From Sedimentisphaerales bacterium (GTDB taxonomy: Bacteria; Planctomycetota; Phycisphaerae; Sedimentisphaerales; SM23-30), in NCBI GenBank assembly GCA_963666285.1, contig OY762711.1: a stretch of 64,000 nucleotides of DNA. One strand, given 5' to 3'. The notes under the pieces were generated by a model that saw only the letters and a program-made list of their open reading frames with translations, was not told where the DNA came from and did no database searches. Both the position numbers and the translations under genes were made by a program. Each line of letters opens with the position of its first letter. Position 1 is the first letter of the stretch. This document shows positions 14,253 through 25,655 of the stretch, piece after piece.

Positions 14253-15179
14253 ATGGCCGAACAAAAAAAACGATTAGGCAGGGGCCTAAACTCTCTACTT
14301 TCGCCTACCAGGTATGAAACCGTTGAACCGGCACCTCCTATCCCTCAACCACAGGCTGCCCCCGCACCAAAACCATTTTCTGGCGAATTTGTGGCTAATA
14401 TTCCCCTTGAAAAGATCAAAACTAACCCACATCAGCCGCGTTTTAACTGGAATGACGACAAACTGAAAGAGTTATCAGACTCTATAAAGGCTAATGGTCT
14501 TGTACAACCTATTATTGTCCGCGAAATGGATGATTGCTACCAGTTAATCGCTGGAGAAAGAAGATTGAGAGCCTCGCAACTTGCCGGATTATCGGACATA
14601 AAAGCTATTGTCAAAGAGGCTACCGAAGAACAAATGCTTGAATGGGCTCTTATCGAAAATATCCATCGAGATGATCTATCACCTATGGAAAGAGCCAAGG
14701 CATATAACAAATACATATCGGACTTTTCTCTTACCCAGGCAGAAGCTGCCGAAAGAATCGGCGAAGATCGGTCAAATATTGCTAATTATATGAGATTGCT
14801 GACTTTGCCGTCTGATGTGCAGGATCTTATTAATGCCCAGGAATTAGGCATGGGCCATGCCCGCGCCTTGCTTTCTCTGCCCGAACCTAAATTGCAGTCG
14901 AAAGTGGCTGCTCAAATTATCAAAAAAGGTCTTTCTGTTCGTGCCGTTGAAAAACTGGTCAAAGACCTGAAAAACAATGCCCAGAATCCTGAAGATAGTA
15001 AAGAGTCGAAAATAAAAGAAAAGCATCCTAATATTATTGAACTTGAGAACGAAATGACACAGGCTCTTGGCACAAAAGTATCTATTGAAACCAAGGGCAA
15101 AAAGACTCATCAAGGAAAAATTATCATAGATTTCTATAATTTAGATGATTTTGACCGCCTCAGAGAAATATTGGTATAG
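14253..15179 (+). CDS. parB: Chromosome partitioning protein ParB/Spo0J
   Basis: LGRGLNSLL, NPHQPR, LIAGERRLRA, ALIENIHRDDL, HTH region RSNIANYMRLL. Confidence 0.96.
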   Translation: MAEQKKRLGRGLNSLLSPTRYETVEPAPPIPQPQAAPAPKPFSGEFVANIPLEKIKTNPHQPRFNWNDDKLKELSDSIKANGLVQPIIVREMDDCYQLIAGERRLRASQLAGLSDIKAIVKEATEEQMLEWALIENIHRDDLSPMERAKAYNKYISDFSLTQAEAAERIGEDRSNIANYMRLLTLPSDVQDLINAQELGMGHARALLSLPEPKLQSKVAAQIIKKGLSVRAVEKLVKDLKNNAQNPEDSKESKIKEKHPNIIELENEMTQALGTKVSIETKGKKTHQGKIIIDFYNLDDFDRLREILV

Positions 15180-15954: not shown

Positions 15955-17496
15955 ATGCTCGCACGTATAATTAGTTCGGCAATGGTGGGAATTGAAGCGA
16001 TTACCTGCGAAGTTGAGGTGGATATTCCTGATGAGATTGGCGAAAAGGATAAAAACAGATTTGTGGTCGTGGGCCTTCCGGATGCCGCGGTTAAAGAGAG
16101 TATCGAACGCGTTAAGAGTGCTGTTAATAATTGTGGTTATACCTTTCCGATGGGCGAAGGTGTTATAAACCTCGCTCCGGCAGATATTAAAAAGGAAGGT
16201 CCATGCTATGATCTGCCTATCGCGCTGGGGATACTATGCGGCATGAAATATCTGTCATACGAAAAGCTACGCGATACTGTTGTGATAGGCGAGCTGGCTC
16301 TCGATGGCAGGGTCCGACCTGTTCGGGGGATACTTGCTGCCGCTCTTATGGCAGCGAAAATCGGCTGTAAAACAGTTATCGTGCCGGCAGAAAATGCTCG
16401 TGAAGCCGCTGTGGTCCAGGAGGTAGATGTTATTCCGGTTTCATCGCTGAGCGAAGCGGTTGGTTTTTTGAACGATCATCTTCCTTTGGAACCAACTTGC
16501 GTTGATATAGATGAGGTTTTTGCGGTTTGCAGCCAGTATGATATTGATTTTTCAGATGTAAAAGGGCAGGAATCGGTTAAGCGGGCAATTACTATCGCTG
16601 CCGCCGGTCGGCACAACATCTTAATGGTAGGCCCACCCGGAACCGGCAAGACAATGCTGGCAAAACGGATACCAACTATTATGCCTCCGTTGACCGTTGC
16701 TGAGTCGCTAGAGACCACCCGTATCCATTCGTCGGTCGGTCTGTTAGCGCCGCAGCAAGCCTTGCTTGCCCGTCGGCCGGTTCGCCATCCTCACCATTCA
16801 GCGAGCGGGCCGTCACTTGTCGGCGGAGGCGCCGTGCCTCGGCCGGGTGAGCTTTCGCTGGCCCATCATGGTTTGTTATTCCTAGATGAGTTTCCAGAAT
16901 TTTCACGTAACGTTCTGGAAAATATTAGACAACCGCTTGAAGATAAACAAGTTACAATCAGTCGAGCTGCTGGCACGCTAACCTTTCCGGCTAATTTTAT
17001 GCTGGTCGCAGCTATGAATCCGTGCCCTTGTGGGTATGCTACCGACCCCAAGCGGCAGTGTAAATGCAGTCCGCCGCAGGTTGACCGTTACCTGGCGAAG
17101 ATAAGCGGGCCGCTTGTTGACAGGATCGATATACATATCGATGTTCCTGCGGTACCGTTCAATGCACTGCAAAGTGACAGGACGGGTACCGGTTCGTCGC
17201 ATATGCGTGAGCAGGTAATGAACGCTTGTGATGCACAACGTCGCCGTTTCGGTGATGTGCCGAACGCATATAACTCGGGTATGACCAGCAGGCAGATCCG
17301 TCAATTTTGCCGACTTGACGAATCCGGTCAGGCCGTAATTAAGAACGCTGTTTATGAGATGGGTTTGTCGGCCAGGGCCCATGATAATATCTTGAAGATA
17401 TCGCGTACGATTGCAGACATGGAAAATTCCGATGCGATTTGTGCCGAACATTTGCAGGAGGCGATCCAATACAGGAGATTAGATCGTCAGTATTAA
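15955..17496 (+). CDS. comM: YifB/ComM Mg-chelatase-like AAA+ ATPase
   Basis: VGLPDAAVKES, NLAPAD, GPPGTGKT, LAHHGLLFLDE, AMNPCPCG, SGPLVDRID. Confidence 0.95.
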   Translation: MLARIISSAMVGIEAITCEVEVDIPDEIGEKDKNRFVVVGLPDAAVKESIERVKSAVNNCGYTFPMGEGVINLAPADIKKEGPCYDLPIALGILCGMKYLSYEKLRDTVVIGELALDGRVRPVRGILAAALMAAKIGCKTVIVPAENAREAAVVQEVDVIPVSSLSEAVGFLNDHLPLEPTCVDIDEVFAVCSQYDIDFSDVKGQESVKRAITIAAAGRHNILMVGPPGTGKTMLAKRIPTIMPPLTVAESLETTRIHSSVGLLAPQQALLARRPVRHPHHSASGPSLVGGGAVPRPGELSLAHHGLLFLDEFPEFSRNVLENIRQPLEDKQVTISRAAGTLTFPANFMLVAAMNPCPCGYATDPKRQCKCSPPQVDRYLAKISGPLVDRIDIHIDVPAVPFNALQSDRTGTGSSHMREQVMNACDAQRRRFGDVPNAYNSGMTSRQIRQFCRLDESGQAVIKNAVYEMGLSARAHDNILKISRTIADMENSDAICAEHLQEAIQYRRLDRQY

Positions 17497-18089
17497 AGTG
17501 TTCTGAATTAGAGTGTTCTAATAAATGAGTTATTGGCGTTCAACAGTTGTTTCGATATTCAATTTTTAAAGATCATATTTATTTTTGAGACGAAGTTTTC
17601 GTCGTTGTTAAGTTTTGTAGAAAGCTGATTTTTGTTGGTTCTTATTTTTTGTTAGCTCTCTACAATAGGATGGTATGTCGAAAGTGCGCTGATTTTTTGG
17701 GCGGGATGGTTGGCCCGAAAAATTGTAAGGTGTTGGGAGTAAGCGGGATAAAATTTTTGGGAATTATAGATTTTCATGATTTGGTGGTTGTAAAAACGCG
17801 GTGATTTTTTCGAGAAAATCAGGGGCCAGGGATCTGGTTTCAGATGTCAGGGAAGGTTGCTCGCTACCGCTCGCGGCTGATTGATGGGTGGCGGGAGGTG
17901 TGCGGAAAGGTAGCGGGGCAGCGCGGCGGGTGAACGGCGGCGAAAAGAGAAACGGATTTGAGCGGAGGCGTATTGCGGGCTGCGGACAGTATACGGCGGA
18001 ACGTTGAACAGGTACGGAAGCCCAAACACGGTCATGGCGTGGGAACGCGAATGTAGGTAATAAGTAAGAGGTAAGAGGTAAAAGTTGAG

Positions 18090-18126
18090 GTGTCTTGATG
18101 TACGTTGACATCAGGAATAATTCGCT
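18090..18126. repeat. 37-bp hairpin repeat A, copy 1 (others at 20364-20400 and 23689-23725)
   Basis: GTGTCYTGATGTACGTTGACATCAGGAATAATTCGCT, stem TCCTGATGT/ACATCAGGA. Confidence 0.9.
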
Positions 18127-18293
18127 GACGCAAGCTATTTTAAATCGCCTTCGGCGAAGAAAGAGCTAAACCACGAATAAGCTATGGTAACCGGAGCCTC
18201 CCGGTTAATTCAGGATCGAGTATAATATAATACGACGTCCTATTTTAAACGTGCTCGAAGCACAAACAATAAACCTTATTGGAGGCCCCAGTT

Positions 18294-19337
18294 ATGATTA
18301 AGTATATCGGATTAGATATGGATAGCAAGAAAACAGTTTCAATGGTATATGAAAATGGTACAGAGAAGTACGCGACATTACCTCCTGACATTGGCAGTTT
18401 GCAAGATTTTTTGATAAAGCATAAGTCTAAGAAGAATAAGGTATTTGTGGCGTTTGAGGTTAGCGGTTTGGCCGGTTGGATATATGATCAGATAGTTGAC
18501 CTGGTGGATGAAGTGAAGGTAGTGAATCCCACCAAAGCTACCTGGATATATCGTACCAATAAGAAAAACGATCGAATAGATGCGCGTAAGATGGCGATTT
18601 TGTACAGTATTGATGAATTGCCAAGTGTTTATATGCCAGATAAGGCGGTAAGGCAATGGCGTCAGATGATATTGCATCGCCAGAAGACGGTACGTAAAGT
18701 TGGCCAGACCAAGAATCAGATAAGAGCGTTGATAAAGAGCAATGGCTATTTAGTGCCAGAGCATAAAGGCACCTGGTGGAGCAAGAAGAATCGAGTCTGG
18801 ATGGAGAGCTTAACAAAGTCAAAAGAAGATGTACTGTGGAGTCTTCAGTTGGAAGATTTACTTGAACAGTTAAAATTACTGGAGAATCAAAGAGATAAGA
18901 TAACAGCCAGACTGGATGAGAAGATAAAAGATAATCCGGGTGCGGAATTATTGATGAGTATTCCCGGGGTTGGTCCAAGGACAGCTGAGGCCATGCTTGC
19001 TTATACAGATGATATAGACAGGTTTAGTAACTATAAGCAATACAGTGCCTACTTTGGCTTAACGCCAAAGCTGGATGAGAGCGGTTCGACTCGCAGATTG
19101 GGACATATCAGCAAGCATGGTCCGCAGGTAGTGCGATGGGCATTATGTGAGTCAAGCTGGCGTGTTGTGAGGTTTTGCCCGGCGATAAGGCAGTTTTATG
19201 AGCGGGTAATGGCTGGTCAGGACGGCAGGAAAAAGATAGCGATAGTTGCGGTAGCACGTAAGTTGACATCGATAATGAGAGCGATGTTGAAGACAGGCGA
19301 GATGTTTAACGCAGAAATGATAAATCAGGCTGCATAG
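18294..19337 (+). CDS. IS110-family transposase/recombinase (DEDD RuvC-like plus Tnp20 domain)
   Basis: IGLDMDSK, AFEVSG, KNDRIDA, LMSIPGVGPRTA, AYFGLTP..DESG, AIVAVARKL; GGAGG upstream of ATG. Confidence 0.95.
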   Translation: MIKYIGLDMDSKKTVSMVYENGTEKYATLPPDIGSLQDFLIKHKSKKNKVFVAFEVSGLAGWIYDQIVDLVDEVKVVNPTKATWIYRTNKKNDRIDARKMAILYSIDELPSVYMPDKAVRQWRQMILHRQKTVRKVGQTKNQIRALIKSNGYLVPEHKGTWWSKKNRVWMESLTKSKEDVLWSLQLEDLLEQLKLLENQRDKITARLDEKIKDNPGAELLMSIPGVGPRTAEAMLAYTDDIDRFSNYKQYSAYFGLTPKLDESGSTRRLGHISKHGPQVVRWALCESSWRVVRFCPAIRQFYERVMAGQDGRKKIAIVAVARKLTSIMRAMLKTGEMFNAEMINQAA

Positions 19338-19700
19338 AAGACAATATAATAAAGGCTGAGCGACTATGCCGTAAGATCCCGGTGAATGTCAATTGAAGTT
19401 TAAGTTTACTTAAAACCTCGTCACGAAGAATGGGAGTTACGGTCTGTATAAAGTTTAATGTGCCGCCGAATAAGGTGAGTACGAATAGGAGGTTAGGTCG
19501 TTGAATGCCTGCCAAAAGCAGCTCAGTTAATAAAATATGAGGCCTCTGCCTCAGCTCAAAAGCTAACAGGGTTAGCCCCTGTAACTTCTTACGCCATCGG
19601 CATCAGCCCATGTTTGGGTGAGAGCTGACGCCGAGGCGACGAAGCTACAGGGGCAAAAACCCAGGAAATTTGATAAAAATGTAAAAAAGAAGAAAAACAA
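19338..19700 (+). ncRNA. Putative bridge/seek RNA region of the IS1111-type element
   Basis: About 370-bp non-coding end downstream of the transposase, as in IS1111 elements; long bulged hairpin 19575-19654. Boundaries are not determinable from sequence alone. Confidence 0.55.
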
Positions 19701-19806
19701 CTTGAAATGCTCCGGTTCATAGGATGGACACGAATTCACACCAATAATATATAAGGTGACTCGCTACCGCTCGTGTTATTTTCATGCTCAGCCGAGGACG
19801 GCTAAG

Positions 19807-20166
19807 CTACTATGTCCTTAACGATGCTGGTTTGGTTGGAGATTGGAAGGATATTATGCAGAGTGGTTTTGATAGGATTTATCTCTCGCAAAGGGCGCAA
19901 AGATCGCAAAGTGTTATTGTGGAATATAACACTGACGGTCACGGACAGGCACAGACAAACACGGCAGGCAGGAAACAGCGAAATAGCGACCAGCTATCAG
20001 CTATCAGCTACCAGCAAAAAGCATATTAACTTCGTGCTTCGCACTCTGGCACATCATTGGACAAGTCCAATGATGTGGAGGTGTCGCTACGCGACCTGTT
20101 TTAAATAATGTGTCGAGCTCCGCCTGAGGCGGATTTTATTCTGCTCGGCGTTGGCAGGGGTGAAGG
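19807..20166. repeat. Long dispersed repeat block (homologous to 24970-25356)
   Basis: Near-identical 19807-19967 vs 24970-25130 and 20033-20166 vs 25224-25356, with different middles. Confidence 0.9.
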
Positions 20167-20321
20167 ATGGGTTAAAAAATGGAATTGAATTGAAGGGTGC
20201 GGTGATATAAGAACAGGTGCATGGAGAGTTGCGGAGGTAGTGCGGCGGGCGGGGGATTTTTCGTGAATTGATGTAAGTTGTTATTTTTGGTTTGTGGGCA
20301 GACCAGACAGGTGCCGTGAAA

Positions 20322-20470
20322 CGGCATCAAAGTGTAAAGGGTAAAATAAAAAGTGTAAAGGATGTGTCCTGATGTACGTTGACATCAGGAATAATTCGCT
20401 ATTGCTCACAACTTGTTTTAAAGCTGACGCATAGGTAAAGTTCAATCAAAATTGCGGCACCTGAAGGATG
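20322..20470. repeat. Repeat modules D1 (20322-20369) and D2 (20404-20470), shared with 60584-60751
   Basis: CGGCATCAAAGTGTAAAGGGTAAAATAAAAAG.GTAAAGGATGTGTCC and GCTCACAACTTGTTTTAAAGCTGACGC.TAGGTAAAGTTCAATCAAAATTGCGGCA.CTGAAGGATG. Confidence 0.9.
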
Positions 20471-20571
20471 AAAAGAGTTAGAAGCGAGGAGAGAGTAGGG
20501 AGGGGAGAAATTAAAAATTAAAAATTCAGAATTAAGAGAGCGCCAAGCTAAGCTGGTGCAGTCAAGCCGGT

Positions 20572-20796
20572 CAATCCGGTAAGGGTAGTCGCCAGACCAG
20601 GAAATACTGCAAGCTGAATGAGCAGGGCAAAGCCATGATAAAACAAGCAGTCTATGAACTAGGCATAAGTGCCCGGGCACATGATAAGATTCTGAAAATA
20701 TCACGGACGATCGCCGACCTTGAAGATTCTGATAATATCCAGGCTCATCACATTGCGGAAGCTATTCAATATAGACGGCTGGATAGGGAGTTTTAG
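20572..20796 (+). pseudogene. comM: Diverged comM 3'-end fragment
   Basis: SRQTRKYCKLNEQGKAMIKQAVYELGISARAHDKILKISRTIADLEDSDNIQAHHIAEAIQYRRLDREF*; 48/69 aa identical to the C-terminus of the resident ComM; in-frame stop upstream at 20533-20535. Confidence 0.92.
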
Positions 20797-21012
20797 CAAA
20801 TTTATAACTTTACAAATAGTATTGCTTTAGGTTAAATTGTATCTGATACCGGAAACAGAAATAAAGCATTAGAAATGTATGCCTGTGCAAATAAAATAAT
20901 GCCGACATTGAATAGGGTGATATGTCTATTTACAGTTTCGCGTGATGAGATTAAGAAGTTCAAACCTGATTTACGATAATCATATTTGAAAATATAGAAA
21001 GGGATTAAGATT

Positions 21013-21873
21013 ATGAAACGTACTCTAACAATTTTATTATCGACCGGTCTAGTATTATTTGCCTTTGCGGAAAAAGCTAATGCTGTATATAACTCTGAAA
21101 CAGGTCGCTTTATGCAGCAAGACCCGTTGGGGACAGTGCCAGAGGGATATGGAAATAAATTTAATTTTGTTGAGCAGAATACAGATGGGGTAAATAGTTA
21201 TGTATATGTTAGAAATAATCCAACAGTATATGTCGATAGTACTGGGCTAGTTTGTGGAGTTACGATATATCGACAAAAATTTGACGGAAAGTATATCGCT
21301 AAAGGGGGAGTTGCAGGAGATATTGATAATGATGGTACAAGTGATGGGGATCCGACTAAAGGACGTGAATGGATAGAGTGGAATGGCGGCTCTTTTGGGT
21401 GGTATCCTGTGGAAGACGGGGATGCAAGGGGTTTATATAGTGGCCAAGAAGGGTATTTACAAAACCCTGATGAAAAAGAAGGTAAGATATGGACAATACT
21501 CCAGCCAACAGCTTGGGATCACTCGCCAAACAAAAGTATTGGTCATGGCCCAAAGGCTGGAATCTCGTGTGAATGCATTGATAAATGTGAAGATATTAAT
21601 GAATGTATAAGTTCGTTATTGAACAAGAATATTCATGGTACTTGGGGAGGTGGAGGCCTTAATGCTGTTTTAATGGCAGAGGGTGGTATATGTGGGCAGC
21701 CCGGACCAGCATATGAAAATTCAGAAACTGAATTCAAGATAAATCGTGGACATTGCAGAGATTTTGTTAATTATGTACTTGAGACATGCTGCTTGAAAAA
21801 AACTAGTTTTTGGAAGGAGTATGTAAATGGAAAACCCGAGTGGCAAAATGTTGGATATCCAAGACAAAAATAA
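21013..21873 (+). CDS. Secreted protein: signal peptide + Rhs-associated core tip + variable Cys-rich C-terminal domain (putative polymorphic toxin)
   Basis: MKRTLTILL...ANA signal peptide, then YNSETGRFMQQDPLG...NSYVYVRNNPTVYVDSTGL. Confidence 0.8.
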   Translation: MKRTLTILLSTGLVLFAFAEKANAVYNSETGRFMQQDPLGTVPEGYGNKFNFVEQNTDGVNSYVYVRNNPTVYVDSTGLVCGVTIYRQKFDGKYIAKGGVAGDIDNDGTSDGDPTKGREWIEWNGGSFGWYPVEDGDARGLYSGQEGYLQNPDEKEGKIWTILQPTAWDHSPNKSIGHGPKAGISCECIDKCEDINECISSLLNKNIHGTWGGGGLNAVLMAEGGICGQPGPAYENSETEFKINRGHCRDFVNYVLETCCLKKTSFWKEYVNGKPEWQNVGYPRQK

Positions 21874-21948
21874 GAATGACGTTCCTGTTAATATAGTGAT
21901 TAACGGTCTTCCAATTACATCACCACAATATTAATTAGTAAGTTGCAA

Positions 21949-22431
21949 ATGCGTTTTAAGGTATATTCTATAATATTTATTGTTTTTTTAGTTGGCGTTG
22001 CGATATTTTTCCATAGAGAAGATCCGCATCATTTAGACCAAAGGTTTGCTTGTAAGATAAATGTCGATGACATTAAAAATGTTATTATTTATGATACAGA
22101 GGCTATTAGTTCTTTAAGTAAAGCAACGAATTATAGATATAGCCAGAGTTTGTTTAAAGAATGGGTGGGAAACCTTTATCTTAATAATGAGGGATTCCTA
22201 AATAAACCGTTTTGGATGGGCGGCAGTATTCTGGAATTAAATTTTTCTGATGGTACCCAAAGATATTTTTTGAAAAGCTGCTATGGGGCATGGATAATTG
22301 ATTTGGAAAGTCGAGAGATATTTACAACAAAATTTGAAACGGAAGAACAGAAGAAGATATTTTTTGATAATTATCTAAAAGAAGAGCAAGATATTAACAA
22401 ATATTTTATCAGTAAAAGAAAAAGGGAATAG
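21949..22431 (+). CDS. Membrane-anchored hypothetical protein, candidate immunity protein
   Basis: N-terminal TM helix; low GC; directly downstream of the Rhs-tip gene. Confidence 0.6.
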   Translation: MRFKVYSIIFIVFLVGVAIFFHREDPHHLDQRFACKINVDDIKNVIIYDTEAISSLSKATNYRYSQSLFKEWVGNLYLNNEGFLNKPFWMGGSILELNFSDGTQRYFLKSCYGAWIIDLESREIFTTKFETEEQKKIFFDNYLKEEQDINKYFISKRKRE

Positions 22432-22459
22432 TTCTTCTTATAAATGAGCAATGTTACCA

Positions 22460-22492
22460 ATTCTCAAAATATCACGGACGATCGCCGACCTT
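22460..22492 (+). repeat. 33-bp comM-derived direct repeat (ILKISRTIADL codons)
   Basis: 32/33 identical to 20689-20721. Confidence 0.9.
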
Positions 22493-22567
22493 TAATGATA
22501 ATTATTCAGCGCATTGTAAAGGTGGAAAGTTATAAGCTAATTTAATAGAAGTTAAAAAAGGTTCAAA

Positions 22568-23230
22568 ATGAAATATTTATGTTCAATAATGATATGTCTT
22601 TTTGTATCTAGTTGTTGTGATTCACCAGAAAGTCGATGTAAAAATTTGATTAAGGAGGTCGTATATGCTGTCACGGCTGATGGAAGAACAATTGAAGAAC
22701 CCTTTATAGTAGTATTTGGAAATCCTGGTCATTCTATTGAGGCTAATGTTTTATATTTACTTCGACATGATGGTTCGTTTATCTGGTCTAATGATCAAAG
22801 TGGAGGGGGGGAACCGTATTACCAAAGTCATATACCAAAGGCAAAATTTGCTGAATTAAAAAAAGAGCTAAAATTTCCTGAAAATGTAAATTGGCAATTT
22901 AAATTTATCCCGACTTATTTTATGCCCCCAGACTATGGTTTTGGAATTATGAATATAGTGGATGACTCAGTTATTTTCAGTGTTTTACTTACATATAAAT
23001 CGCATTATATGGGTAATGATGTCTTTTGGTGGTTTGATGATAAAGAAAGCCTCTTAAAGTTTGCAAAAAATAGTGAAACACAATTACTGGAAGAACGAGC
23101 AAAAGTTGCTACTGATCTTTTTACTTACATTAGTGAAATTGTTGGGAAATATAAACCTGAAACTGGTATAGAAGTTAATTTATCTTTTGAATTGCGACCT
23201 GTTGAATATGAAGTTCAAGATTGTAAATAA
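22568..23230 (+). CDS. Putative lipoprotein, function unknown (candidate orphan immunity protein)
   Basis: MKYLCSIMICLFVSSC lipobox-like N-terminus; low GC. Confidence 0.6.
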   Translation: MKYLCSIMICLFVSSCCDSPESRCKNLIKEVVYAVTADGRTIEEPFIVVFGNPGHSIEANVLYLLRHDGSFIWSNDQSGGGEPYYQSHIPKAKFAELKKELKFPENVNWQFKFIPTYFMPPDYGFGIMNIVDDSVIFSVLLTYKSHYMGNDVFWWFDDKESLLKFAKNSETQLLEERAKVATDLFTYISEIVGKYKPETGIEVNLSFELRPVEYEVQDCK

Positions 23231-23292
23231 CCTTATATTTGTGAAAAGGCGAATTTATAACATTGTGATGGTGAATTTTGCTAATATTGCTA

Positions 23293-23466
23293 TCAAATCT
23301 TTCCTTGGCTAACTCTTTCCTTTTCCCAATTTAACACAGAGTCTTCAGTGACTTCAATTATCTCGGCTAAGTTTTTTGCAGTAAGGTTTCTATCAAGTCT
23401 CATTTGGCGTATCTTTTCGCCGAGAGTTGTCGGGTTTTCTGGGTAATCTGGTATTTTTATAGACAT
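23293..23466 (-). CDS. XRE-family HTH protein or remnant
   Basis: TLGEKIRQMRLDRNLTAKNLAEIIEVTEDSVLNWEK. Confidence 0.65.
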   Translation of the reverse strand: MSIKIPDYPENPTTLGEKIRQMRLDRNLTAKNLAEIIEVTEDSVLNWEKERVSQGKI

Positions 23467-23549
23467 TGGAAGTTCGTTATGATATTCATAATTATGTGGA
23501 AAATCGTGAGATAAAAATTTCAAATAGTTGTAGTTCTGTGCCGCCCGGG

Positions 23550-23586
23550 GTGCCCTTGCGGGTATGCTACCGACCCTAAACGGCAG
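23550..23586 (+). repeat. 37-bp comM-derived repeat (CPCGYATDPKRQ codons), att-like
   Basis: 34/37 identical to comM 17022-17058. Confidence 0.9.
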
Positions 23587-23737
23587 GAGCTAAATAAAAG
23601 GGGTCGTCCTTTTATTTCTGTCCTGTCCTACATTTATTCTACGAGGATCAATTACCATCGATATTCTATTTTTAGCCGAAAAGTGAAGGTGTCCTGATGT
23701 ACGTTGACATCAGGAATAATTCGCTGTCGCGAGCTAT

Positions 23738-23844
23738 TTTAAATCGCCTGCGGCGAAGAAAGAGCTAAACCACGAATGGACGCGAATAAACACTAATAAT
23801 ATATAATGTGACTCGCTACCGCTCGTGTTTTATTAATATAGGTA
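23738..23844. repeat. Repeat B, empty IS1111 target copy 1
   Basis: TTTAAATCGCCTGCGGCGAAGAAAGAGCTAAACCACGAATGGACGCGAATAAACAC...CTCGCTACCGCTCGTG. Confidence 0.9.
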
Positions 23845-24016
23845 CTTGGGAAGGAAATCTCGATGTGCCGGTAAAGCTGATTAATTGTTGCAGGTGGGGT
23901 GGGAAAATGCTTTACTACTGAAATATCTGAAGAGACGGAAAAAGGAAATAGGACATATGCGACGCATGCGACATATAGGACGGATAGGACAAATAAAGTC
24001 TGAGATCTCAGAAAAG

Positions 24017-24252
24017 ATGGTGTTGCTGTTGTTCGACTTACAGCGCTCGCTCAGGACAGGTGTGTGACCAAGTTTAAATCGGCTGGCGCCGAATATGCCG
24101 AGCCAGTGCTCGGCGTTCCCAGGAATTATGAGTCGCTGCGCGAGGGCTGGTTTATTGTCAGGCAGGGATGCCTGACCTACTATGTCGTTAACGATGCTGG
24201 TTTGGTAGGAGATTGGAAGATATTAAGCAGAGTGATTTTGATAGTATTTGTC
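24017..24252. repeat. Long repeat block (homologous to 24810-25046) containing several hairpins, including a GTAG-type REP at 24157-24180
   Basis: Direct alignment by eye. Confidence 0.9.
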
Positions 24253-24580
24253 TATCGTAGAGGCTGCAAAGAATAAAGAGGATACTCGCTTCAGGCTTCG
24301 CTAAAGCTATGGCTCGATAAGAACGCTTTTATTTTATTTTTTTTAGAACCACGAAACACACAAAAAATCACGAAAAAAATATGAGATGGATAGGACGGAT
24401 TGAATTATGAAAAACTTTGTTTTACCATGAAGATAGTTAAGGGCATGAAGAAGAGTTTTTTGTGCCGTACATTACTGGGCTGCAAATTAAAAGGTAAAGG
24501 AAGAGTAATTTTGCGGAACGGCAAGTTAAGAACTAAGAATTTTGAGTGAAGAATTGAGGATTCGGCTTCGCCGAGATTGT

Positions 24581-24687
24581 TTAAAATCGCCTTCGGCGAA
24601 GAAAGAGCTAAACCACGAATGGACGCGAATAAACACTAATAATATATAAGGTGACTCGCTACCGCTCGTGTTTTATTAATATAGGTA
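24581..24687. repeat. Repeat B, empty IS1111 target copy 2
   Basis: Near-identical to 23738-23844. Confidence 0.9.
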
Positions 24688-25655
24688 TTAGGGGCAGGGA
24701 ATGAAGCGGCTATGCCGAGGCTAATTAATCAGCGTGGGTAGTTTATCAAACAAGTTTGATAAAATCTACCCACCCTACTGTCATATGTAAGATATTTTGA
24801 GAAGGAAATATGGTGTTGCTTTTGTTCGACTTGCTGTGTTCGCTCAGGACAGTCGCGTGACCAAGTTTAAATCGGCTGGCGCCGAATATGCCGAGCTGGT
24901 GCTCGGCGTTCCCAGGAATTAGGAGTCGCTGCGCGAGGGCTGGTTTATTGTCAGGCAGGGATGCCTGATCTACTATGTCCTTAACGATGTTGGGTTGGTT
25001 GGAGATTGGAAGGATATTAAGCAGAGTGGTTTTGATAGGATTTGTTTCTCGCAAGGCTCGCAAAGATCGCAAAGTGTTATTGTGGAATATAACATTGACG
25101 GTCACGGACAGGCACAGACAAACACGGCAGACAGAACGACCAAAGGTCGTTAGAGATTAGAGCAGGTGAGCAGTAGAACAGGAATGTAGCCAACAGCGGC
25201 GAGCAGCCAGCTGTCAGGAAATACGTGCTTCGCACTCTGGCACTTTTCGACCGTAGCCGAAAAGTGAAGGTGTCGCTTATGCGACCTGTTTTAAATAATG
25301 TGCCGAGCTCCGCCTGCTGCGGATTTTATTCTGCTCAGCGTTGGCAGAGGTGAAGGTGTCGAAAAGAACGAAAAAAAATTGTCCGCTGAATCCTGCTGAT
25401 GGGCGCAGATAAAGAAAAATGGGGCGGACACTTTTTAGAGTTCTCCAAACTGCGAAATCAGGATTAAACCTATCACAACCAATTTGTACAAACATGCTGG
25501 CTGGCTAATGCTGCGCTGAAATAATTCTTGCCGATAATTTCCACCGTCATTACAATGTGTTTTTACAAATACAGAAAAAGATTTCTTTTGGAGCAATACT
25601 TGTGCCGAACAGGATTGTGTCTGCAACTTTAATTTCACTTTAGAAATATATATAT

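Follow-up and report, generated by a model that had tools for sequence, protein, structure and literature searches.

An intact IS1111-type element of Sedimentisphaerales and its predicted two-loop guide RNA

Introduction

The closest described systems are the IS1111 group (ISEc11, ISPa11, ISKpn4; PMC11187229) and the bridge RNA elements IS621 and ISCro4 (PMC11208160, PMC11208158). IS1111 elements encode proteins of 330–350 aa with a GL-P----SG motif and have inverted repeats that leave extensions of 7 bp on the left and 3 bp on the right (PMC11187229). For IS621, pairing of the handshake guide with the partner DNA drives the exchange and cognate pairing blocks it, and the second base of the core is nearly invariant while the first is flexible (PMC11208158). 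Bridge RNAs have already been predicted in 93% of the catalogued IS1111 elements, with the donor-binding bases in a multi-loop (PMC11208160), and there is a stated disagreement on whether IS1111 elements recognize their donor via an RNA as in IS621 or by a different mechanism (PMC11187229 versus PMC11208160). A literature search combining IS110 with Sedimentisphaerales found nothing, and the partial texts retrieved on the IS1111 handshake, the donor-binding loop and covariation contained no report of handshake covariation in an IS1111 clade, which two ortholog surveys in Science may cover; the related literature includes PMC13626964, PMC13604230 and 10.1101/2025.10.25.684509.

Here, we describe an element from a Sedimentisphaerales genome of 6.35 Mb in four contigs (GCA_963666285.1). 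It lies in a stretch of 64,000 nt of contig OY762711.1, the window, to which all positions without a contig prefix refer; all features of the element are on the + strand. Like the IS1111 group as described in PMC11187229, it has a non-coding region 3′ of its gene, subterminal inverted repeats extended by 7 and 3 bp, a protein of matching length with the GL-P----SG motif, a junction promoter motif, a top-strand match 5′ of the bottom-strand match and one orientation in a repeat target. It differs from that group in its target, a short tandem-like intergenic repeat and not a REP or attC site, in its imperfect inverted repeat and in an evident second, donor-matching loop. With IS621 and ISCro4 (PMC11208160, PMC11208158) it shares a protein that combines DEDD and serine sites (E 5e-17 and 4e-19; PDB 8wt6, 9t56), two predicted guide loops, a half-fixed, half-flexible core, a candidate handshake base 3′ of the second guide and a repeat target; unlike them, it carries its RNA downstream of the gene, its ends are inverted with respect to that gene, its inverted repeats are long and its core is mostly AT while the RNA keeps AG, and the proteins align well only in the C-terminal half. 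The element is not a new kind of system but an ordinary member of the IS1111-type family.

Results

The intact IS1111-type (IS110 family) element spans positions 18177 to 19725, 1549 bp counting both AT dinucleotides, and encodes an IS110-family recombinase of 347 aa (18294..19337) with GGAGG at 18281. Both Pfam domains, PF01548 (N-terminal, DEDD) and PF02371 (C-terminal, catalytic serine), were matched, as was NF033542 (217 bits, cut-off 140). Residues D8, E55, D93, D96 and S263 are kept across the 68 of the 120 listed homologues that entered the conservation alignment and were also aligned to IS621, and the fit of the protein to IS1111 rests on its length and the GL-P----SG motif. Homologues with 60–64% identity are labelled Sedimentisphaerales, Planctomycetota and, once, Oscillospiraceae, among them the uncharacterized IS110 transposases P0034 and P0100 (60–63%); the best-ranked plasmid matches are ~30% identical to the recombinase.

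The filled site reads CCACGA (18171-18176), AT (18177-18178) and the body of the element from 18179; the right end at 19723 is followed by AT (19724-19725) and by GGACACGAAT from 19726. These ends had been claimed as exact in an initial annotation of this DNA, and each motif quoted there was found at its position. The 7 bp left terminal extension (18177..18183), consisting of the core AT and the donor arm, is identical in all copies and is followed by an imperfect subterminal inverted repeat (18184..18197; an exact 9 bp, then ATG beyond a 2-nt insertion) that is kept in relatives. Its right counterpart (19709-19720) with a 3-bp extension (19721-19723) is likewise seen in copies and relatives. 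The genome contains four full copies that are at least 99.3% identical, with identical ends and protein sequences in 4/4. Three of them lie in the same repeat, and the fourth (C1:2394581) occupies a variant that departs from it by two changes on the left arm and by others on the right; the orientation within the repeat or its variant is the same in all four, indicating a specific target and no variable target duplication. A check on the ends and targets of other copies, which the initial annotation had proposed, therefore leaves its reading standing. The no-duplication boundary of IS1111 (PMC11187229) fits here and gives an element of 18177-19723. Compared with the other three, the window copy has ten differences in the gene, all of them synonymous (~1e-7 if random), a pattern suggestive of mosaicism involving a sister element under purifying selection.

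The 12-mer CCACGAATGGAC occurs twice in the window (0.004 expected) and seven times in the genome, all empty (0.4 expected). Empty forms of the target had been claimed at 23770..23787 and 24613..24630 and are present there, located by motif position and picked by the guides together with a G at +1; they are paralogous repeat copies with GGACGC and not the pre-insertion allele. The empty copy at C1:4811854 resembles the flanks of the window site when these are rejoined, through the target and for ~30 bp to its right.

The surroundings of these sites (17500-18170, 19726-21000 and 23230-25650) are long non-coding stretches pieced together from several repeat modules; one module, 40–50 bp long, has dozens of genomic copies. 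Positions 21013-23230 hold an orphan C-terminal RHS-core cassette (TIGR03696) and, after it, two ORFs that have no Pfam match and are possibly immunity genes. Upstream, intact and unrelated to the insertion, are genes for ParB (14253-15179) and a Mg-chelatase-like ATPase (15955-17496), which we take to be of the ComM/YifB type. A possible tie of the repeat to GxxExxY genes was rejected: PF13366 was not found with the query used (genome 97% complete), and the titles and abstracts retrieved on GxxExxY concerned other topics. Neither the filled nor the empty sites lay consistently near four-helix-bundle genes or near RHS cores, for which the query gave only four matches.

Two further IS110 families were observed in this genome. 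The second, IS1111-like family has nine copies (C1:714500, 716544, 909038, 915071, 3250486, 3961189, 4025551, 4653018 and 6011449) with a protein 34% identical to that of the window element; all nine follow ACCACGAA and lie in a sibling of the same target repeat, and the RNA has matching guides in the same order as in the window element (9/10 and 8/10). The third family, with three copies at C1:3804247, 5397358 and 6012043 and 23% identity, also occupies the same repeat, but in the opposite orientation and shifted by a few bases relative to the window-family site, and one guide matches at 9/9. This repeat family hosts all 16 IS110 copies found with the query used.

When the ends are abutted, TTGAAA (19702..19707) and TAAGCT (18178..18183) are spaced by 17 bp and match the sigma70 consensus at 5/6 and 3/6 positions, respectively, so that the promoter motif claimed for the junction is present on joining the ends and is conserved in relatives: the putative −35 hexamer begins TTG in 46/49 loci, the putative −10 hexamer reads TAnnnT in 43/49 loci with both ends, and the spacing is maintained (49 loci, not de-duplicated). 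A linear promoter scan returned no site at the left end. TATAAT hexamers are located ~30–40 nt inside the left end (18221..18231; within the first 70 nt in 44/64 loci), without a clear −35, and could be a possible internal promoter. No circle junction was found in the assembly or in the contigs of four public runs (of five; contig depth was not taken as copy number), and contigs drop rare forms. A check of the sequencing runs listed no RNA run with the element; neither negative speaks against activity. A contig joint skipping 18176-19724 was considered as excision and rejected, as it is explained by the empty paralogous repeats.

The 2-bp AT core of the initial annotation stands for this element, with AT at both junctions in 4/4 copies, but only its first base holds more widely: in relatives this is A at both junctions in 46/46 loci, whereas the second base is the same at both junctions in 37/46 and differs in 9/46. 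Since the elements with G at the left junction form one clade of six plus L067 (quick tree), the left core base travels with the element, and the right core base completes the local repeat, as judged by eye. The AT is thus better divided into a left, element-derived and a right, target-derived dinucleotide. Read on the opposite strand, the core fits the rule described for IS621 (PMC11208158).

The gene is followed by 386 nt of non-coding sequence and preceded by 115 nt; the folding z score of the whole non-coding region is −5.7. Folding and the consensus structure predict a bridge/seek RNA core with two guide-bearing loops at 19354..19537 (ends approximate). In the consensus built from 44 sequences, 23 of the 35 pairs show compensatory change, more than in all 500 shuffles and all slid controls, the structure having come from the same alignment that was used to score compensatory change. 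An Rfam search of 17400-25600 gave no match at E up to 1. Folding and comparison place a long 3′ hairpin at 19575..19654; relatives have a different conserved hairpin in its place, and the hairpin region (19543-19660) has a solo homologue (74%) at C4:42547-42660, just past a gene end.

Relatives were found in 24/301 order-level genomes and, at lower identity, in 8/401 phylum-level genomes (both including the own genome); a search of viral contigs for related loci yielded none, and one of genome contigs with a single protein gave one distant match, which was excluded. From 130 loci, 77 were kept (at least 48% identity), of which 64 had the first RNA hairpin and 53 were distinct. Within the clade, ends and RNA scaffold are shared, while guides and targets vary from element to element, and the flanks fall into several repeat classes (by eye). 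The left flanks of L071 and L074 contain the right end of another element a few bases upstream, that is, two insertions in neighbouring repeat units.

Within the first loop, target guide 1 (19385..19393) pairs with the top strand across the target-derived core AT and right arm (19724..19730, defined by copies, guide match and relatives) at six of the first seven positions, with an A-G mismatch at +1. Target guide 2 (19420..19430) consists of 19420-19426, which pairs with the left arm in the repeat outside the element (18170..18176) at 7/7 positions, two by wobble, the invariant AG 19427-19428 and an AA assigned by position. This AA matches the first donor bases, at the handshake position, and provides no covariation evidence because it is invariant. 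At the fourth copy (C1:2394581), the left arm pairs at only 5/7. The top-strand match stands 5′ of the bottom-strand match, which is the IS1111 order. Another candidate target guide, 19481-19486, was rejected, being nearly invariant whereas the targets vary.

Both target guides covary with the flanks. The 7 nt before the conserved AG matched their own left flank at 0.657, compared with 0.453 ± 0.020 for shuffled flanks (n = 45), the signal coming from positions −5 to −1 and being absent from −7 and −6. For the 5′ side, complementarity to the core and right flank was 0.737, compared with 0.512 ± 0.022 (n = 46); the rule for cutting out this guide ignores the flanks but was written after the relatives' flanks had been inspected. 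Only Watson-Crick pairs were counted, and 0/5000 shuffles, which ignore relatedness, reached the observed match on either side. As judged by this covariation among relatives, the target loop pairs with both target strands. Of the 11 elements whose right arm matches poorly without gaps, eight attain 7 of 8 once a single base is bulged, compared with 388/1388 non-cognate pairs (p 0.003, relatedness ignored); a tolerance of target insertions has been noted for IS621 off-targets (PMC11208160).

The second loop repeats this layout with a candidate donor guide that matches the right end (19485-19489) and is followed by the same invariant AG (19490-19491) and the candidate handshake base G 19492; 5′ of it, a candidate guide (19452..19459, paired by eye) complements the left end if one bulge is allowed. 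Because 19485-19491 is invariant across the 44 aligned sequences, it shows no covariation itself, and because the ends hardly vary, the matches of the donor loop to the joined ends are present with little covariation. The left-end guide has a C at one position in 5/7 elements with an AG left junction. The base 3′ of the second-loop AG is the same as target +1 in 40/45 distinct elements (one more lacks the motif), compared with 31.5 ± 1.3 in shuffles (0/20000), and it is never A, the base able to pair with the element's own end. All five misses have AG or AA at the right junction. The signal rests on the five elements with a non-T base (C or G) and a known right flank, which match in 5/5 cases at four separate places in the quick tree, and hence on few independent changes. 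Among five held-out loci, two were T/T matches (uninformative), two were unscorable and one, L135, was a mismatch: it is a further copy of a C-handshake element, yet has T at +1. The second handshake position showed no covariation (11/45, shuffle 14.2). Four AT-core elements have a conflict between target guide and handshake base, and the handshake base was found at +1 in all of them; the window element has G at +1 in 4/4 copies, matching its handshake base G and not the target guide, which calls for T. Read on the opposite strand, the RNA would have the layout of IS621: left guide, right guide, invariant AG and handshake.

Discussion

Comparison of the copies and their relatives reveals a recombinase gene, conserved ends, four copies, a predicted structured 3′ RNA and covariation of two target guides with the flanks. 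The four copies, their identical ends and this covariation support the initial proposal that an intact recombinase of the IS1111 type is directed at a multicopy repeat. We consider it very probable, on sequence grounds, that the element is intact, recently mobile and RNA-guided in a bridge-like two-loop scheme. By analogy with IS621 and ISEc11, it would excise as a circle whose joined ends form a promoter that serves both recombinase and RNA; the first loop of the RNA would open the target and pair with its two strands around the core, the second would pair with the joined ends, and the serine and DEDD sites would swap the strands. We further infer that the core reads N-T on the opposite strand and that the handshake base of the donor loop would pair with target +1 after the exchange.

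Within the 6.35 Mb genome, the guides together with a G at +1 select exactly seven sites, all of them empty copies of the repeat. When the base at +1 is left free, 34 sites qualify, and the two perfect ones are empty sites outside the repeat. The restriction to the repeat could also arise if other insertions were purged or the flanking structure were helpful, the handshake base not acting as a specificity filter, an alternative that we regard as possible but doubtful. Since 24 of these 34 sites lie in ORFs and seven of the other ten are the G-type repeat, selection alone can explain the placement of the copies, and specificity and selection are not told apart by this genome on its own; in the same direction, ISPpu10 is described as gated by a target stem-loop (10.64898/2026.03.19.712850), and two unrelated IS110 families occupy the same repeat. 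Against it, C1:2266616, a perfect target-loop match outside ORFs with T at +1, is empty, which is a single case, and selection leaves unexplained that the RNA base and target +1 change together in separate lineages. Purging or structure and specificity through the handshake base can both hold.

More doubtful still is the view that only the first hairpin guides, as a seekRNA, while the protein recognizes the ends via their inverted repeats and the second loop is part of a precursor or scaffold, which we consider unlikely. Movement of ISEc11 was better supported by an 82-nt seekRNA than by the long form (PMC11187229), the right-end donor guide of the window element is invariant, and the left-end one, identified by eye, pairs only with a bulge. 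Yet, the second loop repeats the order of guide, AG and handshake and matches the element's right end, the base after its AG tracks target +1, and the left-end guide has its C in most elements with an AG left junction. Finally, we regard as very improbable that duplication of the surrounding repeat has spread dead remnants of the element, or that the copies stem from an assembly artefact: three have common repeat flanks and no junction was seen, but the similarity between copies ends at the element ends or inside a short repeat module, the flanks of the fourth copy differ, all frames are open, every one of the window copy's ten differences is synonymous, and contigs from public runs, though possibly from the source sample, span the element end to end.

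Returning to the two-loop scheme, we lean slightly towards a wider reading in which IS1111 seekRNA and IS110 bridge elements would share one mechanism, the reversed guide order only reflecting ends that are inverted relative to the gene. The handshake base would then be a specificity position able to override a target-guide mismatch in this clade, the right arm would tolerate a 1-nt bulge so that one guide serves unevenly spaced repeats, and three unrelated IS110 elements would have converged on one short repeat.

The guide RNA of the relatives appears to have been re-aimed naturally at many different targets, and the clade constitutes a natural reprogramming set with one scaffold, one pair of ends and dozens of guides with matching targets. 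This set bears on the question of seekRNA versus bridge RNA, between which base 19492 and one loop would discriminate. As donor, target and all predicted guide positions are mapped, the element is directly testable, and it is also a distant (~30% to the best-ranked plasmid matches), AT-core candidate for bridge-editing screens.
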